NCBI GenBank assembly: GCA_050124975.1
Contig: JASFEF010000004.1
Location: 1 to 55,061, forward strand
Source of the DNA: Candidatus Thorarchaeota archaeon
GTDB taxonomy: Archaea; Asgardarchaeota; Thorarchaeia; Thorarchaeales; Thorarchaeaceae
Length of the DNA: 55,061 nt
Direction of reading: 5' to 3'
Made by a program: the position numbers and the translations under genes. Under the pieces are notes generated by a model, which was not told the DNA's origin, did no database searches, and saw only the letters and a list, made by a program, of their open reading frames with translations. Below, in pieces: positions 1-46,718 of the stretch (position 1 is the stretch's first letter; every line of letters begins with the position of its first letter).

Positions 1-844
1 TCTTCTCCCAGTCACGGACACTCCAGACCACAGTCTGTGATTCTTCTTCATTCAAGGTGATTCCTCTTTCCACCTGAATCTTTGCTACATTTGGATGCAG
101 GCCATAGACAGACTCCACACCAACAAATGCAGGTTCGTGCCTCCAGAATGCGCCCTTAACAAGAATGGTTAGAAGAATCGGAGCTATGAAGAGGGTTCCA
201 AATTGGCCAATCAGAGAAACGATGATGAAACCACCATAGGCAAGACTCTGAGCAACCATTATTGCCAGGGGAACGAGGATTAGACTTGACGCATAAGTAA
301 AGATCAGAAACAGAATGACTGCACCGACTATGTCCGCAAACCATCTAGACCTTGGGACTCTCAAGAAATGAAATGCAAGAAGAGCCTCCCCACTCTCTGG
401 ACTCTTCATTATGAGATTGACCATCGGTTCCGACACAATGACTGCATTGAAGATCGGATTGAAAGTTGATGCAATGAAGACATCTTGACTCTGACGGACC
501 CAAACATGGGTGTTCGAGGACAAAACGACTCTCTGGTGGATTCGACCAATTAGGTCATGGAACTCTGTGTTTTGTGAAGGGTTGTTGAATCTGTTTTTCA
601 GGACGATTAGGTAGAGTATGTGTAGAAGAGCCCCTACCATTATTGAGAGTAGTAATGCAACCCACCAGTATATACCGATAATTGTGTATCCAAATCCAAG
701 GAAAAGGACAGCTGAAAAGGGGATGGCTCCGAACAGAACAAGAAGAACGACAAAACCTCTTGACACTGAGGGCACTCGAGTACCGAACCATTTTGCGTAT
801 CTGTCAGAGGTTTTCGTCAATCCACCCAGCCAACCTGCAGCCAT
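1..844 (-). CDS. Multi-pass membrane protein, degenerate M48/HtpX-like; 3' end runs off the window
   Basis: Manual translation gives an open frame from ATG 844 (alternative TTG 820) to the edge: MAAGWLGGLTKTSDRY...VWSVRDWEK. It has four hydrophobic segments and ESGEALLAFHFLR where M48 proteases have E..AVLAHELGH. Absent from the ORF track because no stop falls in the window. Confidence 0.75.
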   Translation of the reverse strand, partial: MAAGWLGGLTKTSDRYAKWFGTRVPSVSRGFVVLLVLFGAIPFSAVLFLGFGYTIIGIYWWVALLLSIMVGALLHILYLIVLKNRFNNPSQNTEFHDLIGRIHQRVVLSSNTHVWVRQSQDVFIASTFNPIFNAVIVSEPMVNLIMKSPESGEALLAFHFLRVPRSRWFADIVGAVILFLIFTYASSLILVPLAIMVAQSLAYGGFIIVSLIGQFGTLFIAPILLTILVKGAFWRHEPAFVGVESVYGLHPNVAKIQVERGITLNEEESQTVVWSVRDWEK

Positions 845-895
845 TCTGGCATAAGGCGTTATAACTTGTGCGTTTCAAGTGGCGATCTCAATCTG

Positions 896-939
896 AAAAA
901 GGGAGGAGGGAATCAGTGAGAATTACTGACACCCTTTTT
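896..939 (-). terminator. Candidate terminator hairpin downstream of the Fe-S subunit gene
   Basis: AAAAAGGG...TCAGT-N7-ACTGA...CCCTTTTT inverted repeats; T-run on the minus strand, ~40-80 bp after the stop at 977. Confidence 0.4.
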
Positions 940-976
940 GCTAATTTTCTTAGAACACTAAGACCGCTCAAGTTGG

Positions 977-1708
977 TCATAGATTCTTTAGTTTCCTTAT
1001 TGCACCTCCAGGTGCGACACCTTTCGGACAAGCTTTCACACAGTTCATTACGAGATCACAGAGTGGTGAACCTTCATTTTGCATCGCAACATCTGCATAT
1101 CTTTCTGTTTCAGGGCTGCGTGAGTCCTCATGGAACCTCCAAGCTTTGGCAAGGGCTGCAGGACCAACATACTCCTCCTTCTCAGCATTGACTGGACAAG
1201 AACCGTAGCAGAGAGCACAGAGAATGCAATTGACATACCTCTCGATCTTCTTACGTTCTTCAGGACTTTGCGACCGGGGTTTGTCGCCTTCCTTAGCATC
1301 ACTCCAAAGCTTCATCGACTCGAGAACATCGTAGAACTTTGTCATGTCAACCACGAGGTCCTTCAGAATAGTCATGTTTGGCAATGGTTCAATCAGTATC
1401 TCAACTTCAGGATTCCAACCAGCAGGTTTGTCGGAAATTGCTGGGAAAGGTTTCAGCTTCATGTCAGTAGTCTTCGCATCAGTAATCTGGGTTCGACACG
1501 CAAGTCGTGGCTCCTTGTTGATGAGCATGGAACAACTCCCACAGACTGCACCTCTGCACGAATACCTGAATGACAGAGAGGGGTCCATCACATCTTGGAT
1601 TTGAAACAAGGCATCAAGTACAGTCATTCCCTTCTTGGTATCTACTTTGTAAAGGTCATAGTGAGTTATTGTCCCGCCATCTCTGCTTCTAGCAATTCTG
1701 AACATCAT
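977..1708 (-). CDS. sdhB: Succinate dehydrogenase/fumarate reductase iron-sulfur subunit
   Basis: SCRGAVCGSC [2Fe-2S] motif, EPLPNM..LKDLVVD, and CILCALCYGSCP plus CDLVMNCVKACP cluster motifs. Confidence 0.93.
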   Translation of the reverse strand: MMFRIARSRDGGTITHYDLYKVDTKKGMTVLDALFQIQDVMDPSLSFRYSCRGAVCGSCSMLINKEPRLACRTQITDAKTTDMKLKPFPAISDKPAGWNPEVEILIEPLPNMTILKDLVVDMTKFYDVLESMKLWSDAKEGDKPRSQSPEERKKIERYVNCILCALCYGSCPVNAEKEEYVGPAALAKAWRFHEDSRSPETERYADVAMQNEGSPLCDLVMNCVKACPKGVAPGGAIRKLKNL

Positions 1709-3453: not shown

Positions 3454-4845
3454 TCAGACCATCTTTGATGGGTCAAGTATCTCATCAAGATCTCCATCAA
3501 TCTCAATTCCAGACTCGACGACAACTTCACGAATTGTCTTCCCAGTTTCATGTGCCCTTTTGGCTATCTCAGAAGCATTGTCATAGCCTATGACTGGGGA
3601 GAGTCTGGTCACTATCATTAGACTCTGGTCAAGCTGTTTCTGTATTCTCACTTCATCAGCTTTGAGACCCTGCAAACAGTTTTTCCTGAAGGAGTCAATG
3701 CCTCTTGATAGCAAGCGGATCGAATCGAGAAGGTTCACAATCATCACAGGTTTAGTGACATTGAGGTCCAATAAACTACCATGACCCTCAGAAGCCGCGA
3801 TGGTCGTATCGTTCCCTATCACTTGCAAGCACACTTGAATCAGAGATTCAGACTGCGTAGGATTAACCTTACCTGGCATGATTGATGAACCCTGTTCGTT
3901 GCTAGGAAGAATGAGTTCACCAAGACCTGCTCGTGGACCACTACCCATCCAGCGTATATCATTCGCCATTTTCATACATGCTAAGGCTATACTCCTGAGT
4001 GCAGCACTTGCTCTAACAATACTATTGTGTGAAGAGATTCCTTCAGCCTTCACAGGACTTTCTCTGAAATCATAACTCCCCATCATCTTGCTGAGTTCTT
4101 TCACAGCACGCTTAGCAAAATCCTTGGGTGTGTTGAGTCCAGTTCCAAGAGCTGTTCCACCAAGCGGGAGAATCAACAGACTTTCGACAACTGTGGGCAA
4201 GTCTTGCTTAAGCGAGGTTTCTATTTGAGACTTGTATACGGAGAACTCGGTTGATAGAGGAATGGGAACTGCATCTTGAAGATGTGTCCGACCAACCTTG
4301 ATAATACCATCGAACTCGTCTATCTTCTCTCCAAGGACAATTCGGAGGCGGTCTAGTGAAGGTATCAAGTGCGACCGCAACATTGAGAGTGCAGAGATGT
4401 GCATTGCTGTGGGGATGACATCGTTGCTGGATTGAGACATATTGACTGTGTTGTTAGGATGGACAGGGGATTTTGTTCCGCGTTGATGACCAAGAATCTC
4501 ATTCGCACGATTAGCCAGTACTTCGTTCATGTTCATATTTGTCTGAGTTCCAGAACCAGACTGAAACACATCGATTGGAAATTGATCCTGATATTTCCCA
4601 TCAACTACTTCATCAATTGCGATTTCAAGTGCATCGAAGATTTCCTGTGTGATTAGTTTCTCCGCCTTGTTTGCTAGTAAACAAGCCTTCTTCACCATGG
4701 CGAGTGAATGGATAAACTCATGTGAGAATGTCCTACCGCTTATCTGAAAGTTCATGAGTGCTCTCTGAGTGTTTATCCCCCAGTAAGCATCCGCAGGAAC
4801 ATCGAGTTCACCAATGGCATCCTTCTCTCTTCTGATCTTCTCCAA
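3454..4845 (-). CDS. fumC: Class II fumarate hydratase
   Basis: FQSGSGTQTNMN, HPNNTVNMSQSSND, GRTHLQDA, GSSIMPGKVNP signature. Start moved to TTG 4845, which follows a GGAGG SD. Confidence 0.92.
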   Translation of the reverse strand: MEKIRREKDAIGELDVPADAYWGINTQRALMNFQISGRTFSHEFIHSLAMVKKACLLANKAEKLITQEIFDALEIAIDEVVDGKYQDQFPIDVFQSGSGTQTNMNMNEVLANRANEILGHQRGTKSPVHPNNTVNMSQSSNDVIPTAMHISALSMLRSHLIPSLDRLRIVLGEKIDEFDGIIKVGRTHLQDAVPIPLSTEFSVYKSQIETSLKQDLPTVVESLLILPLGGTALGTGLNTPKDFAKRAVKELSKMMGSYDFRESPVKAEGISSHNSIVRASAALRSIALACMKMANDIRWMGSGPRAGLGELILPSNEQGSSIMPGKVNPTQSESLIQVCLQVIGNDTTIAASEGHGSLLDLNVTKPVMIVNLLDSIRLLSRGIDSFRKNCLQGLKADEVRIQKQLDQSLMIVTRLSPVIGYDNASEIAKRAHETGKTIREVVVESGIEIDGDLDEILDPSKMV

Positions 4846-8238: not shown

Positions 8239-9138
8239 TTATTCTATTGAAGAGCTTACAAGTTCAGGACCAGGGATTTTGTAAAGAAGGATGAGACCAA
8301 TGATAAACTGGACTGGGATTGGCAAGATAATTCCTATCATGGATATAGAAACATATCCAACTGTAGACATGAAATCTAGTAGAGGGGGATAGATAAGACT
8401 CGCAATACCGATGAGCAATACTCGCCGCAACGATGTCTGTCTCTGGTAGTACTTCCATATCTGAAAAACAAAAATGATATTGAAGATGCTTAGAATAAAG
8501 GTAGGGACCATTACACTGGGTTGTAAGAAATGAAGACCACGGTTGAATTCAACCCCAGAACCAAGAAACCAAAGTAGTCCATATGCTCCAATAGCACCAA
8601 GATTCGACAGTGGGATTGAATGCCACCCAGGGGAAATGTAGCCAAGTGGAACAATCAATGTCACTAGTATCATAATTTGTGCCATCAATTTAGGATTTAC
8701 ACCGTATATTTCAGGATACATTCCAGACCAAGTTGGTATGACTTCTGGCTTCTCGATTTTCCAAAGAATGATAGTTCCAGTTATGAATTGAATTGGAAAA
8801 GGATAGATAACGTAGAAAGCTCCCATCAATCCCGAAATTGAGAGAATAACTACGGTAGGGAAAAAAACACTCAATAAACCAAGGAGGAATACTCTATCCT
8901 TCGTTGTCTTGTCTTGGTAGAATCTGACAATCCAGTATGGATAGAGAATATTCAGAAATAAGAAAGGAAGGGCTTGAAAAGGGAAAACAATTGCAAATAG
9001 AAGAGAGATTGGTAAAATACCTCCTTCAATGACAAATCCAAGTGGAAAAACTAACGATACAAAAAGCATGATGATCGCAATAAATTCAAGTTCCACTCCG
9101 TAGAGCTCCATCTCTGTTGAATACTCATCTGTATTCAT
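8239..9138 (-). CDS. Hypothetical membrane protein (two tandem copies of the same unit)
   Basis: Internal repeat: YGV..PLG..NI..YQ....RV.L.G..S...P..P.P.QFI.G.I.L.KI..PE occurs twice. Confidence 0.8.
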   Translation of the reverse strand: MNTDEYSTEMELYGVELEFIAIIMLFVSLVFPLGFVIEGGILPISLLFAIVFPFQALPFLFLNILYPYWIVRFYQDKTTKDRVFLLGLLSVFFPTVVILSISGLMGAFYVIYPFPIQFITGTIILWKIEKPEVIPTWSGMYPEIYGVNPKLMAQIMILVTLIVPLGYISPGWHSIPLSNLGAIGAYGLLWFLGSGVEFNRGLHFLQPSVMVPTFILSIFNIIFVFQIWKYYQRQTSLRRVLLIGIASLIYPPLLDFMSTVGYVSISMIGIILPIPVQFIIGLILLYKIPGPELVSSSIE

Positions 9139-11120: not shown

Positions 11121-11969
11121 GTGACCAAACGCGTCCTGCTTGTAGGAATGAATAGTTTTGAATCAGGAAAGACGCAGTTTGCGATTCAGTTGAGTAAGTC
11201 TCTTTCCGCAAGAGGACATTCTGTTGAGTACTTCAAACCACTGAGTGGGCACAATTACTGGTACAATCATGAGCACACAAGATTCTGTCTTGAGAATGGC
11301 ATCCTCGTGTCGAAGGATGCAATGACAGTCCGTGGATTCTTTAAGCCAAAGAGCCCAATTGAACTCGCAAACCCTGTCCACAGCCTTTTCGCACCAATGC
11401 GGGTTGAGAGACCCTTGCAGAATATGACAAACACCTTGGGATTAGCTGGAGCCAGTTCGATTCTCACAATGGAACGATTCAGCCGACCAACTGACTCCGG
11501 TATTGACACAACGGTGCTAGTTGCTCAGGGGCTTGTTGAGGAAGAGCGACTGATCATCAGGCTAGAAGAGGTTGGAATGCTCACAAGGGGTGCCGCTATA
11601 CTTCCAATCAGTGATCTCGAGGCAGTTCAGGAATATGAACGATTGAATTTTGAGGAACATGTGTCAGAGTCATTCACCGAGGTTGAGAAGGCTGCTGATG
11701 TTGTAATAATAGAAGGCTTCAATGATGCAGCATGGCCATGGGATGGTCTCGAAACTGTCGATACTGTTCTACTTGTCAACCCAGCGCATATCTTCTCATA
11801 TGATCCTGAGAGATTCAGAAAAGCCGCATACTTGATGAACCGAGGTAACCTACCAATAAGAGAAGTGACATTCAGGAGGATTTCTGACCTACTCAAACCA
11901 CTTAATCGACTGGAAATTAGACCCGATACCGAACTGACTACTGATGAACTTGAGCATCTTGGAATTTAG
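11121..11969 (+). CDS. Predicted archaeal P-loop ATPase/GTPase (dethiobiotin-synthase-like, COG4028-type)
   Basis: LLVG...ESGKT, FKPLSGHNYW, NPV, VIIEGFND. Confidence 0.7.
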   Translation: MTKRVLLVGMNSFESGKTQFAIQLSKSLSARGHSVEYFKPLSGHNYWYNHEHTRFCLENGILVSKDAMTVRGFFKPKSPIELANPVHSLFAPMRVERPLQNMTNTLGLAGASSILTMERFSRPTDSGIDTTVLVAQGLVEEERLIIRLEEVGMLTRGAAILPISDLEAVQEYERLNFEEHVSESFTEVEKAADVVIIEGFNDAAWPWDGLETVDTVLLVNPAHIFSYDPERFRKAAYLMNRGNLPIREVTFRRISDLLKPLNRLEIRPDTELTTDELEHLGI

Positions 11970-11998
11970 TTCCGCACAGGAAAGAAAGATATTCAGTA

Positions 11999-13000
11999 TT
12001 GAAGAAATCAGAATACATAACCGGGTTCAAAGACGGAGACATTAGATTGACAGAGGACTTGAACTGGGAACTCATTGTTATTGGTGGCGGCCCCGCTGGA
12101 ATGACAGCAGCGATTTATGGGGCACGATATGGACTCAAGACACTGCTTTTAGAATCCAAAGTCCTGGGAGGCGCCCAAGCCACAAGTCCAGGAATAGAAA
12201 ACTACCCTGGTTACACCTTCATCGTGGGATTGGATCTAGCAAATAAGATGAAAGAGCAAGTCAAGAAATGTGGAGCGTTCATCAGAGAGATCACTGAAGT
12301 CAAGAGCGTAAAGAGAGAAGGAGATGATGGTGACTTTCTCCTCGAAACTCGACGTGGAGTGTATCGAGCTCCAGGAATAATCTTTGCAACTGGGGGAGGT
12401 CATAAACATCTCAATGTGCCTGGAGAAGACCAACTTACTGGGCGAGGTGTTTCCTATTGCGCAACCTGTGATGGCCCCCTCTTCAGGGACAAGACTGTCG
12501 CAGTTGTGGGCGGTGGAAACACTGCAGTCACTGAGGCACTCTATCTCTCAGAAGTTGTTGGCAAGGTCTATCTCATTCATAGAAGGGATGAACTGAGGGC
12601 TGAGAAGATCATTCAGGATTATATTTTGAACTCCAGTGTGGAGATACTCTGGGACACGATTGTTAAGGAGATTCGAGGTGATGACCTTGTCAATGAGTTA
12701 CTTCTCCAAAACGTGAAAACCGGAGAAGAGAGAACTCTTCCAGTGGATGGCGCATTCATTGCTCTTGGGTCTAACCCAGAGAGCTCTCTTGCCAAGAGTA
12801 TTGGTGTTGCTACAAATGATCGTGGAGAGGTTATCGTTAACGCGAAACAAGCCACGAATGTCCCAGGAGTCTTTGCTGCAGGAGATGTTGTAGAATCGAT
12901 GAAGCAGATTGCAGTGGCTGTAGGACATGGTGCCATTGCTGCAGATTCTGCGTATTCATATATCAGAAAAATACAGAGAGGACCAATTGGCTACGCTTAG
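11999..13000 (+). CDS. trxB: Thioredoxin-disulfide reductase
   Basis: GGGPAG, GVSYCATCDG, GGGNTA, HRRDELRA, GVFAAGD. Confidence 0.95.
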   Translation: MKKSEYITGFKDGDIRLTEDLNWELIVIGGGPAGMTAAIYGARYGLKTLLLESKVLGGAQATSPGIENYPGYTFIVGLDLANKMKEQVKKCGAFIREITEVKSVKREGDDGDFLLETRRGVYRAPGIIFATGGGHKHLNVPGEDQLTGRGVSYCATCDGPLFRDKTVAVVGGGNTAVTEALYLSEVVGKVYLIHRRDELRAEKIIQDYILNSSVEILWDTIVKEIRGDDLVNELLLQNVKTGEERTLPVDGAFIALGSNPESSLAKSIGVATNDRGEVIVNAKQATNVPGVFAAGDVVESMKQIAVAVGHGAIAADSAYSYIRKIQRGPIGYA

Positions 13001-40006: not shown

Positions 40007-43000
40007 ATGAGTGAAACTAGGGTTAATATCGAGTCAGTAAGATTGGGAAATTTCCTGTCATTCTACGCTGGAACAGTAGAATTTGACAAAGGTCTAACTG
40101 TACTTGCGGGACCTAATGGTTCAGGTAAGACCTCAATCTTCCATGCGCTGAAATTTGCCCTTGGTTCAAATCAAAGAGAGAATCGGTACAGCAAGTGGAG
40201 TGACTTCATCCGGCATGGAGCAAGTACGGCGGAGGTTGAGATATCCGTCAAGGTGAATGGCCAGAGTCGCAAGTTTCTCAGGAGAATTGATAGAGATGGC
40301 ATTCCTCGAGCATACACAGATGGACGTCGAGTGAAAGCCGCAGAACACAAGCAATTGATCAATGCTCTAGGTCTTGAAACCGACAATCCACTTGTCTTCA
40401 TGCCACAAGAGAGAATCAATGCAATACGAGAGATGGACCCATTTGAGGTCAGGAGACTTGTGGAGGAAGGAACGGGACTCGATATTCTTAGAGATAGGAT
40501 TGGTCTTCAGGAAACCGAAGTGAGTCAAAGTCGCCAAAAACTTGAGGTGGCTCTCGCTGAGTCCAAGACTGTTGAACGAGAGCTGGAGTTACTACAGCAT
40601 GATATCTTTCGTCTTGAGAAGAAGAGGGCTTTACAGACACAGGAGAGAGAGCTAGAACAGGAACTGAAATGGTCAAGTTTTGATGATCTGTCTGAAAGGA
40701 TCCAACAAACAAAAGATGAGATTGAAACAAAGGAGTCTGGTTTGGTAGGAGTCCTTGAAGAACAAAGCACGATTGAAGGACAGATTTCTGAAGAGGAAGA
40801 GAATAGTACAAAACTTGAAGCCAGTATGTCAATACTCCAGACTGAAATTGGCAGGATTATTGCCAATATTGAGGAAGAAGAGAGGAACCTTGCCAAGCTC
40901 AAAGGAGATTCGAAGAAACAAATAGTGGAACTGCGGCAACTTGAAAGCAATGTAAAGGCTGAGAAACGAAAAGAAGAGAAACTCAAGGATGACCTAGAGA
41001 GAGTATCAGCTGCGCGAGAACAGTACCTAGACCAGCAAAAGACGTTGAGTGAAGAGATCAAAGGACTGGAGGAAGAGCGAACAAGAATTAGAGATGAACT
41101 TGCCGCATTTGCTGAATGGAATACAAAGAGAGCAGAAGCACATGGTCATTATAAAGCACTTCAGGCTGAGATTGAGGGCAAGGACCTCCTCATGAGGAGT
41201 CTTCGTGAAAGACTTCAGGTAGAGGAAGCTGAACTACAAGCAATAGAAAGCAAGTGGTCACATGTGTGGGATAAGATAGAGGAAACAGATGCAAAAGAGC
41301 TAGAAGGAAGGAAATCTCAACTAGAGAGAGAGATTGCATCCCTTAACGAGGAACGGTTCAGAAAAACAAGTCGAGTAGCTCAACTTCAGAAAGAGATAGA
41401 CGATATCAAGGTCAGACTATCTGAAACATCCAAGCGAATCCCTGAATCTGTTAGAGACCTTAGTGAGGCGATTTCAGAGCACAATCTTGAGAGCGTTAAG
41501 GGACCCCTCATCAGTTTATTCACTGCGGATGACGAGATTTCGCCAGCTGTGGAAGGAGTCCTCGCAGGGAACCTCCCATTAGCGTTTGTCACCACAGATT
41601 TTTCTGACTATCAACTACTACTCAAACTTCGAAACAAGGAGGAAGCACCATCTCCAATTATCTTCCTAAGGGAAGAAGAAGTACAGGAGAGACCGGAGCT
41701 ACCTCAGGGGGCAGGAGTTGAGGATTGGCTCTGGGACAGACTCTCGGCAGACGAAGAGATTCAGTCGCTCCTTGGTATAGTATTTGGTAATTTCGTGCTT
41801 GTCAAGAATTCACAGACTGCAGCACGACTTGCTAGCAAGCGGAATTTCAGAGTCGTCACACGAGATGGCTCAATTACAATACCAAGTGATTCACAGATAG
41901 TCAGTCATCCGAAGAGTGAGCCCTCAGGAATGGTTTCCACTGCACCACTACAGTCACGGCTGGTGAAGTTGGAAAAGGATCTAACAATAGAGCGTAGACA
42001 TGTTACAGACATAATGGCGAAACTAGAAACTCTCTCGAATAGCCGAGAGGAAACATTGGAACTGATAAGCCAGATGACTCGCTGGGGTTCAACTTGGGAG
42101 CGTAGACGGAAGCTCAATGAGAGCATTCCTGAGCTTGAGGAGCGAATAGTGAGCATCGATGATGAACTGAAGACTCTACAACGAGATTATGGAAGGTCAG
42201 AGAGAAACCTCAGAAAACTAGATAATACGCAACCCCCTGAGCGCAGCAGATTGGTAGGACAGGAGTCTGCAATCAGAACAAAACACCGTCGTCTTCAGAG
42301 TGACTTGACCAAAGTGGACACAAAGGCATATGCCTCTGAGAAGGATGAGGAACTCAAGCGGCAAGAACTGAAGGGGGTCAAAGAAAGCATAACGGTACTC
42401 TCTGACAGCCTCGCCGACCTACGAGAAGAGATTAAGCAATCAAAGGATGCAACGTCGTCAATTCTTGAGAAGATAGAGATTATGCGTGAGGGTAAAGAAG
42501 AAACCAAGAAAAGGCAAACTGAGATTAGAGAAGAACTTGCAGAGGTCCGGACCACTATTAGAACACTGAGTGAAACGTTGGTTGAACTAAATCTACATGT
42601 CAAGAATCGCAGACTTGAAGTCCTGCAGTCAAAGAGACAGCTGACGAATCTTGAATATGAACTAGAGTTGATTGAACAGGAGATTCAAGGGAAGACGAAA
42701 CCTGAAAGTATTCGATCTATAGATTTAGTGAGAAGAGAACTTGTGAAACTCCGACACATCTTAGATGACTATCAAGATGTTTCAGAAACAGTTGCACACA
42801 CAGAGAACCAGTTGAAGGGCAGACTTGGAGAACTCGTGAAACGTGTTGCTGAGCTGGGTGAGGAACTAGAGGAAGCAGAGTCTACCGTTCGCACCATTAG
42901 AGAGCAGTACCACAATGGCATGAATGAAACACTTCGTAAGGTGGAGAAAGGAGTCAACGAGGTTCTAGGAAGAGTTCAATTCCCTGGTAGTGTGAGGTTC

Positions 43001-43375
43001 GAGCTTGCTCTGAGAGATGGGAGATATGGTGTTGAATTCAAGTCTCGAATCAAAACCGAGGGTTTTGGGGATATTAGTGCGGGTTCGGGTGGAGAGAGGT
43101 CTCTAATTGCCATTGGTCTGATTCTAGCCCTTCAGCGGTTCAATCCTGCACCAGTATATGTGATGGATGAGGTTGACACATTCCTTGATGCAACTAACAC
43201 AGAGCTGGTCAGTCGTCTCTTTCACGATGCATCCAGACGTAGCCAGTTCATTCTACTAACACCAGCAAAGAGTACGCATTTACTGAAACATGCTGACAAG
43301 ATACTGGGAGTTGTTTCACCGAATGGTGTTGAGCCTTCGGTGATCATCGAAAGTCCCAAGTTCAAAGCCCAATAG
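40007..43375 (+). CDS. smc: SMC protein, Smc5/6-like
   Basis: GPNGSGKT, DNPLVFMPQER Q-loop, long coiled coils, hinge GPLISLF...AVEGVLAG..LAFV....D, signature SGGERS, ALQ....P.YVMDEVD. Confidence 0.9.
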   Translation: MSETRVNIESVRLGNFLSFYAGTVEFDKGLTVLAGPNGSGKTSIFHALKFALGSNQRENRYSKWSDFIRHGASTAEVEISVKVNGQSRKFLRRIDRDGIPRAYTDGRRVKAAEHKQLINALGLETDNPLVFMPQERINAIREMDPFEVRRLVEEGTGLDILRDRIGLQETEVSQSRQKLEVALAESKTVERELELLQHDIFRLEKKRALQTQERELEQELKWSSFDDLSERIQQTKDEIETKESGLVGVLEEQSTIEGQISEEEENSTKLEASMSILQTEIGRIIANIEEEERNLAKLKGDSKKQIVELRQLESNVKAEKRKEEKLKDDLERVSAAREQYLDQQKTLSEEIKGLEEERTRIRDELAAFAEWNTKRAEAHGHYKALQAEIEGKDLLMRSLRERLQVEEAELQAIESKWSHVWDKIEETDAKELEGRKSQLEREIASLNEERFRKTSRVAQLQKEIDDIKVRLSETSKRIPESVRDLSEAISEHNLESVKGPLISLFTADDEISPAVEGVLAGNLPLAFVTTDFSDYQLLLKLRNKEEAPSPIIFLREEEVQERPELPQGAGVEDWLWDRLSADEEIQSLLGIVFGNFVLVKNSQTAARLASKRNFRVVTRDGSITIPSDSQIVSHPKSEPSGMVSTAPLQSRLVKLEKDLTIERRHVTDIMAKLETLSNSREETLELISQMTRWGSTWERRRKLNESIPELEERIVSIDDELKTLQRDYGRSERNLRKLDNTQPPERSRLVGQESAIRTKHRRLQSDLTKVDTKAYASEKDEELKRQELKGVKESITVLSDSLADLREEIKQSKDATSSILEKIEIMREGKEETKKRQTEIREELAEVRTTIRTLSETLVELNLHVKNRRLEVLQSKRQLTNLEYELELIEQEIQGKTKPESIRSIDLVRRELVKLRHILDDYQDVSETVAHTENQLKGRLGELVKRVAELGEELEEAESTVRTIREQYHNGMNETLRKVEKGVNEVLGRVQFPGSVRFELALRDGRYGVEFKSRIKTEGFGDISAGSGGERSLIAIGLILALQRFNPAPVYVMDEVDTFLDATNTELVSRLFHDASRRSQFILLTPAKSTHLLKHADKILGVVSPNGVEPSVIIESPKFKAQ

Positions 43376-43388
43376 AGAGTGAGCAAAA

Positions 43389-44048
43389 GTGAGCGAAAAC
43401 GAGAGCCTTGCCGAAAATGTCTTCAACATGGTGCAGGCCGTTCGTTCTGGTGAAATCGATCCACTTGAACTAAGATTGACTCAAGCATACAAAGACCTTC
43501 GGGATTTGGCCGCAAAAATCGACAGTAAGATAGACATAGATGAAATGCTGAACGAGATTCTCAGCACTAAAGTCGATCGAGTACACGAGCTTGCTCGAAT
43601 TTTAGCAGCCCCAGAAATCTATGTAAACAGGTTGAAGGAGCTATCGATGAGAAATCTCGCTAAACTCGCGGCATCTAGACAACCTGTAGTCATTGGACAT
43701 CTAGAACATGATTCACTTGGTAGTGCCCTCAGTCGAGTTGTTACATTGATTGACGCAATGTCACGTGAGCCAGTAGAGGACCCAGTTCCAAAGATTACTG
43801 AGCTTCCAAATGGGTTTGCTCTTGATACTGAAGACTCGGTCTTTCTAGAAGACCTAGATAGGTTCCTTTCAACGATTCCAAATGGAGATAGGACACAGTT
43901 CGATGATCTTGTGATGAACGAGGAGCTAGACCTGTTTCTGAAACACTTCCTCTATGTTGTAATCCTCGTTTCCAAGGGAAGATTGCATTATGACCCTGAA
44001 ACTCGGGAGGTCTGGAGACCCTCAATAACTGATGAAGATATGACCTGA
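43389..44048 (+). CDS. Kleisin (ScpA/Nse4-like) subunit
   Basis: 13 bp after smc. GEIDPLEL resembles the ScpA N-terminal EIDPWDI; the C-terminal FL.VVILVSKGRL resembles the ScpA winged-helix motif. Confidence 0.6.
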   Translation: MSENESLAENVFNMVQAVRSGEIDPLELRLTQAYKDLRDLAAKIDSKIDIDEMLNEILSTKVDRVHELARILAAPEIYVNRLKELSMRNLAKLAASRQPVVIGHLEHDSLGSALSRVVTLIDAMSREPVEDPVPKITELPNGFALDTEDSVFLEDLDRFLSTIPNGDRTQFDDLVMNEELDLFLKHFLYVVILVSKGRLHYDPETREVWRPSITDEDMT

Positions 44049-44074
44049 AAAAAGAAAGAGGTCTGCTTGATTTC

Positions 44075-45415
44075 TCAAGCAGAAACCTCAACAACTAATT
44101 CTTGTGAAATATCTGACTCTTCATCAACTGGTTTTGATAAACTAGCGTGAAGATTCAGCTTGGCAACAACTAAGAAACCAAGAAGTGAAACTAGTACAAG
44201 TACGAGAGCAGCACCTGTCATAGGAGGACCTGTTGCCGCGACAGTTTCCGCCCAAATCCCGCCAATAGCCATTCCAACAACTTGCAGGGCTGTGAAAGTG
44301 ACACTTAGGAGTGAGAAGACACGCCCTCGAAGTTCGTCTTCAACGAGCTCTTGCATGAGAACTGTCAGGGGAATAATCAGAACAACATCTACTGCACCAA
44401 TAATTACCCAAGACAGCATGGCTGTCACCAAGTCAAATGCAAGGACAAGTCCAAAGATTGCAATACCTGCCAAGAGCTCTGCTAATACTATCAGATAGAG
44501 AGGTTGGTCAATCTTCTGCTTGCGGCTGAAATATACTGCAGCGGCAGCTCCTGAAGCAGCTCCTGCACTCAGCACAAGACCAACTTGAGCTGAGCCTAGA
44601 CCAAGCTCGCCCTCTAGTAATGGCATGAACAGGGCGTTCAGGATACCTGATGATACTGCGAGGAGCATAGCGAAGACGAAGAGGAATGACAGGATTGAAC
44701 TACCAATGACATAGTGAGCACCTTGCTTAATCTGAGCCATCATAGACTCCTTGTCATCTATATCTCTATTCGGGATGAGATTAGTTCGGATTCCTCGAAG
44801 TGCAAGTGCAGAGAACATGAAGGCTGCAGAATTTATTGCGAATGCAAGTAAGTAGTCAGGGGCAAGGAGTGCAACCAAAATTCCACCGATTGGGGGGACA
44901 ACCAACTGAACAATCTGGAATGTCATCTGAGATAGAGAGTTTGCTGCTACCAACTCATCACCTTCGACGAGATTGGGGATTGCTGCACTCCTTGCGGGAA
45001 AGAACCATGCATTTGCGGTTGCATAGAGAAATGTGAGTAAGTAAACCCAATAGATTGTGGGCATGAATGAAGGGAAGTATATTGCGAGAGGAATGAGGAG
45101 AATGGTAATTGCGCGAACGATATCAGAAGCAACCATAATCTTCTTGCGGTTCCATCGATCAATGTATACACCAATTGGACCGGCAAAAGCAACGACAGGT
45201 AATGTTTGGGCAATGGCAAGTATAGCCATGGCCATTGGAGAACCAGTCAGGTCGTAAGCATAGAACATGAGTGCAAGATATGCAATCGCTGTTCCAATGT
45301 TAGATACTAGTTGACCAGACCATAGTAATGAGAAGTCACGATGAGCAAGGACTGCTCTGAATCCTTTCGGATCATCGTTGTCCTCGAGTTCTACAGTGGT
45401 GACTACTTCAGACAT
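44075..45415 (-). CDS. MFS transporter (DHA3/macrolide-efflux-like)
   Basis: F.LLWSGQLVS..G, G.YIDRWNRKKIM..SD..RA, PA.SA.IP..V, ELRGRVFS; 12 TM segments. Confidence 0.9.
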   Translation of the reverse strand: MSEVVTTVELEDNDDPKGFRAVLAHRDFSLLWSGQLVSNIGTAIAYLALMFYAYDLTGSPMAMAILAIAQTLPVVAFAGPIGVYIDRWNRKKIMVASDIVRAITILLIPLAIYFPSFMPTIYWVYLLTFLYATANAWFFPARSAAIPNLVEGDELVAANSLSQMTFQIVQLVVPPIGGILVALLAPDYLLAFAINSAAFMFSALALRGIRTNLIPNRDIDDKESMMAQIKQGAHYVIGSSILSFLFVFAMLLAVSSGILNALFMPLLEGELGLGSAQVGLVLSAGAASGAAAAVYFSRKQKIDQPLYLIVLAELLAGIAIFGLVLAFDLVTAMLSWVIIGAVDVVLIIPLTVLMQELVEDELRGRVFSLLSVTFTALQVVGMAIGGIWAETVAATGPPMTGAALVLVLVSLLGFLVVAKLNLHASLSKPVDEESDISQELVVEVSA

Positions 45416-45420
45416 CAGAT

Positions 45421-45519
45421 CTATCTCCTAAAATATGTCCTTGCTACTGCGGTCGTGGAAACGACAGTCTTTGTCTTCTTCCAAACCCGTGGAGTTCCAT
45501 CGATTTTAGCAAGTGCCAA
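45421..45519 (-). CDS. 32 aa cationic micropeptide P2 (MALAKIDGTPRVWKKTKTVVSTTAVARTYFRR)
   Basis: TTG start 7 nt after a GGAGGT SD; stop 5 nt before the MFS ATG; homologous in register to P1. Confidence 0.7.
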   Translation of the reverse strand: MALAKIDGTPRVWKKTKTVVSTTAVARTYFRR

Positions 45520-45524
45520 TCGAA

Positions 45525-45626
45525 TTACCTCCGATAGGTGTAAGCGTGTGTCAGAGCAAAGGTCGAAACCTTAGCTTTTTTGTTCTTGAGCAGGTATGTT
45601 TTTCGTGAGTTAGTTGTTAGAGCCAT
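45525..45626 (-). CDS. 33 aa cationic micropeptide P1 (MALTTNSRKTYLLKNKKAKVSTFALTHAYTYRR)
   Basis: ATG ~32 bp downstream of a TATATATA box; stop 5 nt before the P2 start; homologous to P2. Confidence 0.7.
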   Translation of the reverse strand: MALTTNSRKTYLLKNKKAKVSTFALTHAYTYRR

Positions 45627-45658
45627 GATATTTCACAAGAAATACTGCTCAATTTTGG

Positions 45659-45666
45659 TATATATA
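45659..45666 (-). promoter_or_regulatory. TATA box of the P1-P2-MFS operon
   Basis: TATATATA at canonical distance from the P1 ATG. Confidence 0.55.
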
Positions 45667-45696
45667 GCGGAGCCACTTTTCAGGGTCACAGATTGA

Positions 45697-45713
45697 AGTC
45701 ACATATTGTGACT
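45697..45713. promoter_or_regulatory. Palindromic TF-binding site candidate AGTCACA-TAT-TGTGACT
   Basis: Perfect 7-3-7 inverted repeat plus an extra GTCACA half-site at 45685-45690, between divergent promoters. Confidence 0.55.
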
Positions 45714-45790
45714 ATGTAAGATTGAGGCGCCCTTTGTCAGGATGAGAAACCGAAACCCTCAGACTTTAAACAACTCAGGAGGTTGGGAGG

Positions 45791-46309
45791 ATGTTGTGCA
45801 GAATGAACGAGTATGCCATCCTAATGAAGCTCCTAACAAGGTCAGGAGACCCCATAGGTGCAGGTGTAGATGACATGCTTGATGCACTCGGTCTTCCCGA
45901 GGATATAGGAAGGGAAATCCTATTCAGACGGTTGGGGGAGTTACACTCCAGACTTGAACCTGTAGGACTGACAATCAAACACAATCCGGTAAGCAGTGTA
46001 TTCTATGTCGACACAATACACCAGTCAAAGATGAAACAAGACTCGATGCTCCCAGATAGGTTGGCTGCTACTCTTCTTATTGTAATCACACTTGCGTACC
46101 AAGAAGGGGGATGGGTTTCCTATGACCGAGTGCGAGAGTTTCGGAAGAAGAGTCTGCGAGGAGTCATGGAGGACTTGAGGGAGCTTCAGAATCAAGGATA
46201 CATTGAGTTAGACCCAGCTGATAAGAGGGTGCGGTTAGGTCTTCGTGTCCCCTTTGAGATTGATTATGAGGCATTCTTTAGAGACCTTGTAGCAGAGAGA
46301 GAACAGTGA
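45791..46309 (+). CDS. KITE-like tandem winged-helix protein (ScpB/Nse1/Nse3-like)
   Basis: 172 aa with two wH-like halves: L..L.S.L...GL.I......FY, then L..LAATLLIVITLAY...VS, and L..L.NQGYI......RLG.R. Near smc and the kleisin. Start may be ATG 45803. Confidence 0.6.
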   Translation: MLCRMNEYAILMKLLTRSGDPIGAGVDDMLDALGLPEDIGREILFRRLGELHSRLEPVGLTIKHNPVSSVFYVDTIHQSKMKQDSMLPDRLAATLLIVITLAYQEGGWVSYDRVREFRKKSLRGVMEDLRELQNQGYIELDPADKRVRLGLRVPFEIDYEAFFRDLVAEREQ

Positions 46310-46358
46310 CTTCGTTAGTTTTATCAAGGCAACGTCTGAGGACAACTCGGTCTGAATC

Positions 46359-46718
46359 ATGTCACACAGACGTTCACTAAGATTCTCAAAAACGACCTGC
46401 CCGATCTGCGGTAGCAAGGAAGTTGCCCGTGATGATCACAAGGGAGACCTCCTCTGCACAAACTGCGGTCACATCATAGTCCGTACTGAAACAAGATCAG
46501 TTGGGAAATTCGATGTCGCTCAACATCTCAAGAGAAACGGAAAGATGAATTTCTCAGGTCTACAACAGGTGACGGCTGCCTCCGACGACAAACTGTTCGG
46601 TGTAATTCAGAACATGCTCAATATGGGCTTGATCACAGACATTGGTGGGCAGTACTCACTCACCAAGAAAGGACAGAGATGGTACCGTCAGAGGTTAGGG
46701 CAGGAATGGGGATACTAG
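46359..46718 (+). CDS. TFIIB-type Zn-ribbon plus winged-helix protein
   Basis: CPICGS....D...GDLLCTNCG; C-terminal wHTH ending MGLI....QYSLTKKG. Confidence 0.75.
   Translation: MSHRRSLRFSKTTCPICGSKEVARDDHKGDLLCTNCGHIIVRTETRSVGKFDVAQHLKRNGKMNFSGLQQVTAASDDKLFGVIQNMLNMGLITDIGGQYSLTKKGQRWYRQRLGQEWGY

Follow-up and report, generated by a model that had tools for sequence, protein, structure and literature searches.

The window, the whole stretch of 55,061 nucleotides of Candidatus Thorarchaeota DNA that was analysed, carries on its minus strand two tandem short open reading frames (sORFs), P1 and P2, followed by a DHA3-like MFS gene, and the sequence together with the ORF listing places both stop-to-start gaps at exactly 5 nt (Table 1). 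Both peptides are cationic and have no signal sequence. An earlier note on this DNA had claimed this spacing, a TATA box upstream, a series of gapless P1/P2 identities and the double use of each terminal Arg-Arg codon pair as the Shine-Dalgarno (SD) site of the next cistron (GGAGG and AGGAG); all are borne out by the sequence, and the gapless alignment adds R32 to the shared residues, for an identity of 34%. At both the P1/P2 and the P2/MFS junction GGAG begins 13 nt ahead of the start of the following cistron. Across 1340 long ORFs in the genome GGAG peaks at -12 to -15, and GGAG or GAGG is present in 31.3% of stretches upstream of long ORFs versus 9.2% of random stretches. P2 begins with TTG here; in 18 of 19 orthologs the start is ATG.

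Table 1. Features of the P1-P2-MFS locus, in positions of the window
Feature	Position	Strand	Description
P1, first cistron	45626..45525	-	ATG start, 33 aa, net charge ~+8, end YRR-TAA
P2, second cistron	45519..45421	-	TTG start, 32 aa, net charge ~+7, end FRR-TAG
DHA3-like MFS transporter, third cistron	45415..44075	-	446 aa; Pfam MFS_1 and MFS_3
GGAGG Shine-Dalgarno for P2	45532-45528	-	within CGG AGG, the last two Arg codons of P1
AGGAG Shine-Dalgarno for MFS gene	45429-45425	-	within AGG AGA, the last two Arg codons of P2
TATA box TATATATA	45666-45659	-	3' end 33 nt upstream of P1 ATG
Candidate operator	45698..45712	.	15-bp palindrome, GTCACA-N3-TGTGAC type; GTGAC(C) repeats then run toward TATA box
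Terminator-like hairpin	44044..44089	-	13 bp, two stacked stems, GAAA loop; U-run follows (read from sequence)

The TATA box is kept in the orthologous loci whose promoters were compared. The usual archaeal spacing between TATA box and transcription start is the basis for placing the start of the P1 mRNA, and the TATA-to-start distance implies a 5' UTR of probably about 10 nt or less. P1, P2 and the MFS gene are likely to share a single transcript behind this one TATA box. At the far end, the MFS stop codon sits inside the terminator-like hairpin, between the convergent MFS and 219-aa genes; the hairpin folds at -18.8 kcal/mol (z-score -3.46), and 0 of 200 shuffles fold equally well.

The third cistron matches Pfam MFS_1 (115.2 bits, 4.1e-33) and MFS_3 (103.3 bits, 1.5e-29), both above their cut-offs. 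Its best NCBIfam match is TIGR00900, the DHA3 H+ antiporter, with 217.9 bits against a cut-off of 319.6 and thus below it; the EntS and Mef models score weaker still. The pump has an extra N-terminal tail, which is acidic. Orthologs share 68-88% identity within the genus, and a 56%-identity ortholog in another genus likewise stands behind a P1-P2 pair. In several genera such pairs precede two unrelated MFS types.

The palindrome upstream, and with it the entire 89-nt promoter block, recurs before P1-type sORFs on contigs C45 (95.5% identity) and C29 (89.9%), and a palindrome of the same type also precedes a nitroreductase-like gene on contig C8; its recurrence suggests that the palindrome acts as an operator. 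The divergent 172-aa gene encodes a highly conserved Thorarchaeota hypothetical protein, with wHTH matches only below threshold in Pfam, and was dropped as a local regulator, the promoter block being found also at loci without that gene. RNA-library contigs, from three runs each holding 7-19% of the sampled words, are uninformative about P1-P2-MFS expression, the six short ones mapping only to 45814-46400 (the divergent 172-aa gene and beyond). A spacer ORF of relatives (MKLSERLINW...) was rejected as a fourth peptide: its conserved TGGTCA repeats do not keep to one frame, and in several loci the reading frame is not open. Downstream of the C29 triad, ARAGORN detected no tRNA.

Homologous sORFs, one to four in number, lie upstream of the MFS gene in all 21 ortholog loci examined, and P2-type sORFs score in 19 of the 21; locus L021, on a contig without the 5' end of the gene, was left out of this count. 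The family profile gives E values per genome of 4e-14 for P1 and 2e-13 for P2, and P1 and P2 are not a chance ORF pair but lie far beyond chance. For P2, pN/pS is 0.43 in frame versus 1.21 and 1.79 in the shifted frames (19 orthologs, gapless), and for P1 it is 0.63 versus 0.91 and 1.13 (20 P1-type sequences from 19 orthologous loci). The middle-copy sORF gives 0.60 in frame, the shifted frames of the three types span 0.8-1.8, and in triad loci the ratios are 0.42 for P1 and 0.37 for P2. Conservation upstream of MFS orthologs and selection on the reading frame were among the checks that the earlier note had proposed, and both speak for its view of the sORFs. Differences fall mostly at the third codon position (0.32, 0.24 and 0.57 per site at positions 1, 2 and 3 of P2), replacements are conservative (D/E, I/L/V, K/R, Y/F/W/H), and in the antisense frames of P2 stops interrupt 11-18 of 19 sequences, with no antisense ORF kept. 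The conserved T22, A24 and Y29 of P2 are encoded by 4, 4 and 2 codons, all the synonymous codons being used, and the terminal residues are AGG for R31 in 16 of 19 orthologs and AGA for R32 in 13 of 19, codons fixed in the way an SD would need. By these measures P1 and P2 are homologous, conserved sORFs under purifying selection, and are read as real small basic proteins that would be translated. Conservation of the peptides is strongest in the last ~13 residues, a pattern that an exit-tunnel element would also show, and the P1 ratio is only moderate; both observations count against a role of the peptides in trans.

Beyond this genome, 78 of 85 others in the same GTDB family contain 1-14 profile matches each, and the 314 genomes that represent other families of this phylum contain none. 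Judged by these matches (~550 in all, with 60 loci compared together with their neighbours), the peptides occur only in the GTDB family of Thorarchaeota to which the window belongs. This genome has five loci, P1-P2-MFS and four more; in two of the four no gene longer than 40 codons follows the sORFs before a terminator. On contig C272 a stand-alone pair keeps the motif although 50 nt separate its end from the terminator and no cistron is coupled to it. Most loci of the family are without any transporter. The commonest operon elsewhere, in other genera, consists of a basic P1, a basic P2 and an acidic P3 and ends in a terminator, and every cistron junction compared shows the same stop/SD/start geometry. 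The pair thus heads an MFS operon here, as the earlier note put it, but the five loci of this genome, the stand-alone triads and the second MFS type show that P1 and P2 are not specific leaders of this gene; the extra loci and the P1-P2-P3 triads count in favour of a role in trans. P1-type and P2-type sequences form distinct subfamilies kept across genera, with N6 of P1 invariant and R8 near-invariant, and the two are read as anciently diverged paralogues; distinct, maintained subfamilies would suit two non-redundant subunits. P2 and P3 carry complementary charges (positive and negative), and three natural ORFs, all singletons on contigs of 0.6-1.6 kb, fuse P2 to P3.

Database searches returned no relatives. 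In Pfam, P1 falls into no family and P2 draws only a chance match of 12.4 bits, NCBIfam gives none for P1, P2 or P3, PDB profile searches with two family alignments yielded 0 hits at E<=1, and the ESM Atlas had no usable match. Nor is the family described in the portions covered of the Thorarchaeota and Asgard literature on small proteins, sORFs and leader peptides. It is an undescribed, lineage-restricted peptide family, which upholds the earlier proposal of an undescribed archaeal peptide system; the label 'unannotated' holds within the window, but public sets list some few relatives as 'hypothetical protein'.

Selection might act at the RNA level, on SD sites, small hairpins and the 5' end of the short-leader mRNA, with the peptides as translated spacers or by-products. 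The first P1 codons and the terminal Arg codons are indeed conserved at the nucleotide level, small hairpins form at the S-T-x-A codons in some orthologs, and at the junction 82.7% of cells are paired in a stem joining P2 codons 29-31 with codons 2-4 of the MFS gene. Shuffled alignments pair equally well at the junction (82.1%), with only one pair covarying, and the local hairpin is broken at two pairs in 8-10 of 19 sequences. RNAalifold on 19 orthologous regions, each covering P2 and its junction, predicted no conserved structure (0 pairs, energy 0), and Rfam on 45300-45900 at E<=10 returned only a 12-bit lncRNA chance match. At P3 the invariant end coincides with a hairpin: the stop codon falls within the 3' arm of a 13-bp stem that covaries and is followed by a U-run, with 89.4% of cells paired, 4 pairs showing compensatory change and 0 of 500 shuffles reaching the observed score. 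Against selection on RNA stand the third-position excess and the pN/pS below 1, both confined to the annotated frame, the free use of synonymous codons for the conserved T, A and Y, and the conservative character of the replacements, and this explanation is considered very improbable. Part of the C-terminal conservation could still be RNA-level, given the P2/MFS junction stem.

The peptides might instead be exported. P1 and P2 would then be leaderless cationic antimicrobial or signalling peptides, possibly RiPPs modified in trans, which the MFS pump exports or to which it gives immunity, with the acidic P3 neutralising them in stand-alone loci. Tandem homologous peptides of 30-35 aa, strongly cationic and without signal or leader, speak for such a proposal; the complementary charges of P2 and P3 and the repeated linkage of pairs to two MFS families fit as well, and the layout is that of multi-peptide leaderless bacteriocin genes as outlined in the cited accounts (PMC6131525; PMC7332713). 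The predicted structure fits poorly: with the family alignment, AF2 leaves residues 1-21 of P1 disordered and forms a helix at 22-31 (block pLDDT 84; the model overall is of low confidence, mean pLDDT 68), that is, a 10-residue helix with a hydrophilic disordered remainder in place of an amphipathic, membrane-active fold. The Pfam scan of 13 neighbouring ORFs at the five loci of this genome revealed no ABC exporter, immunity gene or protease, and none of the radical-SAM, YcaO or lanthipeptide enzymes that a RiPP cluster would contain, in keeping with the statement in the earlier note that no modifying enzyme is adjacent and leaving its RiPP suggestion without enzyme support. Most loci, the stand-alone ones included, have no transporter, and the sequence is conserved across genera and not diversifying. 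The known cargo of MFS pumps is small molecules or modified peptides of very few residues and does not include chains of 33, which counts against export. Taken together, the exported or antimicrobial role that the earlier note entertained fits poorly and is improbable.

A more serious alternative is that P1 and P2 are regulatory uORFs acting in cis. The nascent C-terminal S-T-x-A-h-x-x-A-Y-x-x-R-R-stop would act in the exit tunnel at termination, so that a ribosome pausing on the stop codon covers the SD and start of the next cistron; its release, possibly under the influence of a metabolite, a drug or release-factor activity, would set reinitiation on the next sORF and then on the pump and, in triads, would decide whether the P3-stop terminator hairpin can form. 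The conserved C-terminal stretch matches in length the nascent segment that lies near the peptidyl-transferase end of the tunnel, the stop/SD/start geometry is uniform at every junction, and the stop codons of both P3 (within its covarying hairpin with U-run) and the MFS gene lie inside terminator hairpins. Precedents exist in the partial accounts cited, with leader-peptide control known for bacterial DHA3-type pumps in mef(E)/mel (PMC4335068) and termination-arrest sensors in SpeFL and TnaC (10.1101/604074; PMC8450073). On the other side, no conserved alternative RNA structure spans P2 and the junction, N6 and R8 in the N-terminal part of P1 are conserved across genera too, and the C272 pair keeps the motif with no coupled cistron and a terminator 50 nt on. 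Two to four serial homologous gates, with up to 14 matches per genome, would be unusual for leaders, and the natural P2-P3 fusions take out one gate. We know of no arrest peptide described in archaea. Short ORFs do lie directly upstream of the MFS gene, as in an attenuation leader, and mutually exclusive hairpins were not found; the double leader-peptide switch of the earlier note survives as a live rival, though its classical form with alternative hairpins is unsupported by the 0 pairs of RNAalifold. Control in cis is possible on this balance, though not the expected outcome. Rather unlikely is an archaeal conserved-peptide uORF cascade in which P1, P2 (and P3) sense the metabolite, drug or release-factor state at Arg-Arg-stop and meter reinitiation on the pump and, in triads, formation of the P3-stop hairpin. 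Such a cascade, if real, would to our knowledge be the first archaeal ribosome-arrest or attenuation system and would make this Asgard system formally comparable with eukaryotic conserved-peptide uORFs.

The preferred reading, to which a probability of about 0.42 is given, is that P1 and P2 form a translationally coupled, trans-acting small-protein pair. A short-leader mRNA would begin ~25 nt after the strong TATA box, and ribosomes would pass from cistron to cistron, the Arg-Arg codons serving as the next SD and each stop lying 5 nt before the next start; through this coupling, P1, P2 and the DHA3-like pump would be made by one ribosome stream and therefore in fixed proportion. Coupled gene pairs are enriched for heteromeric complexes, and short gaps with embedded SDs are the coupling geometry in the accounts cited (PMC10666635; PMC6728339), one of which reports that ~20 nt between cistrons abolishes coupling (PMC10666635). 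The gaps and the SDs inside the upstream genes are present here, and dependence of downstream translation on the upstream cistron is predicted. The peptides would work in trans and paired, with a putative binding partner. In each, an N-terminal tail rich in Lys/Arg would be disordered and be followed by a short C-terminal helix, S-T-x-A-h-x-x-A-Y, likely to make contact through its Ala-x3-Ala/Tyr face. Complex prediction for P1, P2 and P3 of the C29-type triad gave no answer (ipSAE 0.02), and AF2 renders a natural P2-P3 fusion as two isolated helices (mean pLDDT 59.8, pTM 0.22). At the present locus, the pump with its acidic N-terminal tail would take the place held by acidic P3 in most family loci, and the pair is therefore read as a small-protein module, one that may accompany or modulate a co-regulated efflux/stress regulon.

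No part of archaeal genomes is less well charted than their small proteins, and genetic work on Asgard archaea is not yet possible. The family described here is clear-cut, multi-copy and under coding-type selection, and nearly all genomes of one Thorarchaeota family carry it. Its operons follow an unusual grammar in which SD sites in C-terminal Arg codons chain two basic peptides to an acidic one, stop codons lie within terminator hairpins, and the loci have an operator-like promoter in common. Whether they prove to be a small-protein complex, a modulator of transporters or a nascent-peptide switch, peptides of ~30 aa and hairpins of ~30 nt are defined, synthesisable targets for work in vitro, and they show that a conserved part of what Asgard genomes encode is overlooked or passed over by gene callers.

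Several known systems invite comparison. Small-protein modulators of transporters such as AcrZ, SgrT and MgtS are likewise shorter than 50 aa and co-expressed with, or acting on, a membrane transporter; they are mostly single transmembrane helices and separately encoded, whereas P1 and P2 are soluble and basic, come as a pair and are present in multiple copies. Leaderless bacteriocins of the garvicin KS/enterocin DD14 type resemble the present pair in comprising two to four tandem homologous cationic leaderless peptides of ~30-45 aa, but as summarised in the cited accounts they are hydrophobic or amphipathic and helical, have dedicated exporters and immunity genes and come from Firmicutes (PMC6131525; PMC7332713). 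P1 and P2 share the tandem cationic leaderless layout and neither the compact amphipathic fold nor exporter and immunity genes were found with them; unlike those bacteriocins they are hydrophilic, with a single short helix, are conserved, and usually have no transporter nearby.

In mef(E)/mel a short ORF lies just upstream of a DHA3-type MFS pump on the same transcript, as is probably also the case here with a DHA3-like pump; that system, as far as the cited account goes, is bacterial and combines one short leader with terminator/antiterminator hairpins and drug-stalled ribosomes (PMC4335068), in contrast to the tandem homologues at this locus, which are under protein-level selection, have no conserved alternative fold and occur also without a pump. 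SpeFL and TnaC are similar in size (~24-34 residues), in their position upstream of a transport or metabolic operon and in their conserved C-terminal residues, and they act at the stop codon, where stalling by P1 and P2 is putative; in the accounts cited they are single-copy, bacterial and Rho- or hairpin-dependent (10.1101/604074; PMC8450073), and searches of Pfam, NCBIfam and PDB gave no sequence relation to P1 or P2. Closest to the preferred reading are the coupled archaeal and bacterial gene pairs, which share with the present locus co-directed cistrons a few nt apart and an SD in the upstream 3' end and which, in the published descriptions cited, mostly have 4- or 1-nt overlaps between genes of ordinary size (PMC6728339; PMC10666635). 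The operon described here differs from them in its 5-nt gaps, in linking two to four homologous 30-aa cistrons in series, and in an SD fixed as two C-terminal Arg codons.

The stretch 45380-45800, read on the minus strand, presents in order a palindrome, a TATA box, P1, P2 and a 446-aa gene, with 5 nt between P1 and P2 and 5 nt between P2 and the third gene. The product of the latter matches Pfam MFS_1 (4.1e-33) and MFS_3 (1.5e-29), and among NCBIfam models TIGR00900 (DHA3) scores best with 217.9 bits, short of its cut-off of 319.6, followed by EntS and Mef models at 73-84 bits. The MFS stop codon lies within a hairpin (-18.8 kcal/mol, z -3.46, GAAA loop) that is followed by a U-run and marks the operon end. 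This terminator-like hairpin is common to the MFS gene and a convergent 219-aa gene, beyond which lies an SMC gene; on the other side is a 172-aa gene, whose product is a hypothetical protein highly conserved in Thorarchaeota, its winged-helix matches lying below threshold, and which alone is represented among RNA-library contigs, in three runs. One might guess that genes flanking the operon beside SMC would be ScpA and ScpB, an identity for which Pfam gives no support. The earlier note's description of P1 and P2, including their shared residues, 'aromatic-RR' ends, two Shine-Dalgarno (SD) motifs and exact 5-nt gaps, is borne out by the sequence, except that the start of P2 needs correction: it is TTG here and ATG in 18 of 19 orthologs.

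A protein search of 41 related genomes recovered same-genus MFS orthologs at 68-88% identity, and upstream DNA was compared at the 21 loci holding the MFS 5' end (the window's own and 20 relatives, which are non-independent samples; L021, in which that end is absent, was left out). Every genome is a MAG, and that of the window is 87.9% complete with 4.67% contamination. The earlier note had proposed a profile search for such sORFs upstream of MFS orthologs, and sORFs homologous to P1 or P2 are present at all 21 loci, two to four of them at every locus except L005, which is cut by a contig end. At 19 loci a scoring P2-type sORF overlaps the MFS start or ends no more than 5 nt from it; at L018 and L019 a 32-codon ORF in the P2 position is too diverged to score. 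The sORFs occur in four arrangements: [P1][P2], [P1][spacer][P2], [P1][spacer][Pmid][P2] and [P1a][P1b][spacer][Pmid][P2], Pmid being a middle family copy.

Features of the operon, its relatives and their peptides (C, contigs of the window's own genome; L, fetched loci; other coordinates are those of the window)
Feature	Location	Strand	Description
Palindrome	45698-45712		upstream of P1
TATATATA box (TATA box)	45666-45659	minus	
P1	45626..45525	minus	ATG start, 33 aa, TAA stop
P2	45519..45421	minus	TTG start, 32 aa, TAG stop
MFS gene	45415..44075	minus	446 aa
MFS N-terminal tail	45380-45415		MFS codons 1-12
Hairpin	44044-44089		holds MFS stop codon
SMC and 219-aa genes	40007-44048		neighbours, one side
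172-aa gene	45791-46309		neighbour, other side
C29 locus	8324-8525		P1, P2, then 38-aa acidic ORF, terminator
C45 locus	11843-12262		P1, spacer, two further copies; ~430 nt on, 503-aa MFS of another type
C105 locus	773-1099		two copies, acidic ORF, terminator
C272 locus	about 160-383		diverged copy, one clear copy, hairpin terminator
89-nt promoter block	45627-45745; C45 11754-11842; C29 8235-8323		palindrome, GTGAC repeats, TATA box, short 5' UTR
C8 palindrome	3786-3800		ahead of 203-aa nitroreductase-like gene
Spacer	C45 11944-12092 (L032:1943-2096); 15 related loci		~145 nt, alignment A6
P1-type sORF (other genera)			33-36 aa; N6 invariant, R8 nearly invariant
P2-type sORF (other genera)			26-31 aa; MALAK-like start, ..AYFRR end
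P3 (other genera)			29-40 aa; acidic, ..EVLALEAT end
P3 in own genome	C29 8532-8648 (L031:2033-2179); C105 983-1129 (L033)		relatives L042-L113
In-frame P2-P3	L031:1931-2146; L033:887-1096; seven more		
L103	G354:C1, about 122139-125231		shortened pump, another genus

The evidence favours coding sequences over an RNA element. Under the dN/dS-type comparison also proposed earlier, here computed as simple Nei-Gojobori proportions, pS being close to saturation in P2, mean pN/mean pS over 19 gapless P2 orthologs is 0.43 in frame versus 1.21 and 1.79 in shifted frames; the ratio is 0.63 for P1 (20 sequences, 19 loci; 0.91 and 1.13 shifted) and 0.60 for Pmid (13 sequences; 0.82 and 1.15 shifted). 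Differences per site in the 19 P2 orthologs are 0.32, 0.24 and 0.57 at codon positions 1, 2 and 3, stops interrupt the antisense frames in 11-18 of the 19, and conserved residues are written with several codons (four for Thr22, four for Ala24, two for Tyr29). RNAalifold predicted zero pairs over P2 and its junction, an Rfam search of the operon region gave no match, and a small hairpin at the S-T-D-A codons is confined to one subclade, two of its six pairs being broken, in 8 and 10 of the 19 sequences. That the sORFs act purely at the RNA level is highly improbable, and fits the data worse than either a peptide pair acting in trans or a nascent peptide acting in cis.

Embedded GGAG-type motifs can reasonably be read as SD sites in this organism: GGAG or GAGG occurs at -18 to -4 of 31.3% of 1340 long ORFs of the genome versus 9.2% of random places, and GGAG starts most frequently at -12 to -15 genome-wide and at -13 at both operon junctions. 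Of the two terminal Arg residues in the 19 P2 orthologs, the first is encoded by AGG in 16 and the second by AGA in 13, a bias expected if the SD site holds these codons. A possible 7-bp stem joins P2 codons 29-31 with MFS codons 2-4, enclosing SD, stop and start; 82.7% of cells are paired versus 27-50% for slid partners, with column shuffles giving the same value as observed (82.1%) and one covarying pair only. This putative stem may help to tie MFS translation to that of P2.

Searching all six frames of the window's own assembly with the family profile revealed four further loci, the other-type MFS of C45 matching Pfam MFS_1 at 3.4e-16. The promoter block of the window operon recurs at the C45 (95.5% identity) and C29 (89.9%) loci, and on C8 a nitroreductase-like gene has a palindrome of this type upstream; together these suggest one regulon, perhaps with a common stress or detoxification role. 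A 17-codon ORF overlaps the start of the C8 gene (ATGA). Many loci, the window's own operon not among them, have a conserved spacer between sORFs that contains three TGGTCA repeats at intervals of about 11 nt, followed by GTCTCAGAAA and GTGACCA, and the GTGAC motif also flanks promoters. RNAalifold pairs repeat 1 with GTGACCA and repeat 2 with repeat 3 (16 pairs, mostly invariant, one clearly covarying), and the spacer could serve as a structured RNA or as an array of protein-binding sites.

Five further genomes, representing five other genera, usually have a three-part unit of a P1-type sORF, a P2-type sORF and an acidic P3. Orthologs of the window's pump (56% identity) and of the second MFS type (55-57%) also lie behind P1-P2 pairs, so the P1/P2 duplication is old and both copies have been kept. 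The link to MFS pumps, on which the earlier note built its operon, is recurrent but not obligatory, and the family extends far beyond that operon. At L103 a DHA3-type pump that follows a P1-P2 pair lacks its first ~60 in-frame codons, starting at a residue aligned to position 63; the gene could be frameshifted, a pseudogene or wrongly assembled.

P3 closes most P1-P2 operons. Its N-terminal part is variable and its end invariant, the latter coinciding with a 13-bp hairpin that carries the P3 stop codon in its 3' arm and is followed by a U-run; with the MFS stop codon, this makes two different kinds of locus in the genome with stops in terminator-like hairpins. Over 21 loci with P3, pairing holds in 89.4% of cells versus 18-44% for slid partners, compensatory changes occur at four pairs, and the observed score was reached by none of 500 shuffles, so part of P3 conservation is at the RNA level. 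P3 nevertheless looks translated, judging from an ORF open at all 21 loci, a pN/pS of 0.61 in the variable part of seven orthologs (0.85 and 1.15 in shifted frames) and indels there that are both of 3 nt. At nine of ten loci a single stop codon (eight TAG, one TAA) separates P2 from an in-frame P3, and in three metagenomic ORFs (P0018, P0037, P0041; singletons on short contigs) Gln replaces the stop and joins the two peptides. Either fusion and fission or read-through of the stop codon could account for this. The extra, acidic N-terminal tail of the pump, which in many orthologs reads M-[ST]-E-V-V-x-[VI]-E-x-T, resembles by eye the P3 end E-V-L-A-L-E-A-T at peptide and nucleotide level (alignment A5); a P3 cistron may have fused to the pump and left this remnant, or the two may have a docking motif in common.

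Searched against 400 genomes of the phylum, the 35-member family alignment A1 matches the window's genome and 78 of 85 others of its GTDB family, in 15 of 16 sampled genera, with 1-14 matches per matching genome; it matches none of 314 genomes from 32 other families, a result that holds for this profile, built from one genus and own-genome paralogues. When 1.84 billion cluster representatives were scanned in full with HMMER, 48 proteins scored at E<=1e-3: 40 of 29-46 aa, six of 59-103 aa (the three P2-P3 fusions, and three longer called ORFs with one family copy at their C-terminus), and P0003 and P0031, long and repetitive with many short stretches. Source names, where any, are 'hypothetical protein', and record titles of the orthologous loci are Candidatus Thorarchaeota. 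Pfam, NCBIfam, PDB and ESM Atlas searches gave no family or structure relative and no literature description was found; the peptides are members of no curated family. The earlier proposal of an undescribed archaeal peptide system survives in this respect, but the exported antimicrobial, signal or RiPP peptides that it envisaged are unlikely, fitting the data worse than a trans-acting pair or a cis-acting gate.

The AlphaFold2 model of P1 made with A1 is of low confidence (mean pLDDT 68), with residues 1-21 unstructured and 22-31 a helix (block pLDDT 84) that corresponds to the conserved S-T-x-A-h-x-x-A-Y segment; two Ala, an aliphatic residue and Tyr would share one face. From the short-leader promoter, three chained cistrons with embedded SDs, coding-type selection and a multi-locus family that includes loci without a downstream gene, we infer both coupling and a function of the peptides' own. 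Translation of P1 and P2 would feed that of the pump, and the peptides would act, most probably as a trans-acting pair that has acidic partners: P3 elsewhere, perhaps the pump's tail in the window. To this function we give a probability of about 0.4. The chief rival is a nascent-peptide gate acting in cis at each Arg-Arg-stop junction. Such a gate would account for conservation concentrated near the C-termini and for stop codons lying within SD sites and hairpins; it is harder to reconcile with peptides that are multi-copy, stand alone or are fused, and we consider it rather doubtful.

The window operon may be set beside known systems. Leader-peptide-controlled DHA3 pumps (PMC4335068) resemble it in gene order only, and their defining alternative hairpins were not found in it. 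Multi-peptide leaderless bacteriocins share the gene layout but differ in predicted fold and gene neighbourhood. The P1-P2-MFS geometry matches the termination-reinitiation cases of PMC6728339 and PMC10666635. According to the latter, genes must lie very close together to be coupled, and subunits of complexes are over-represented among coupled genes; the window operon would work like such translationally coupled operons.
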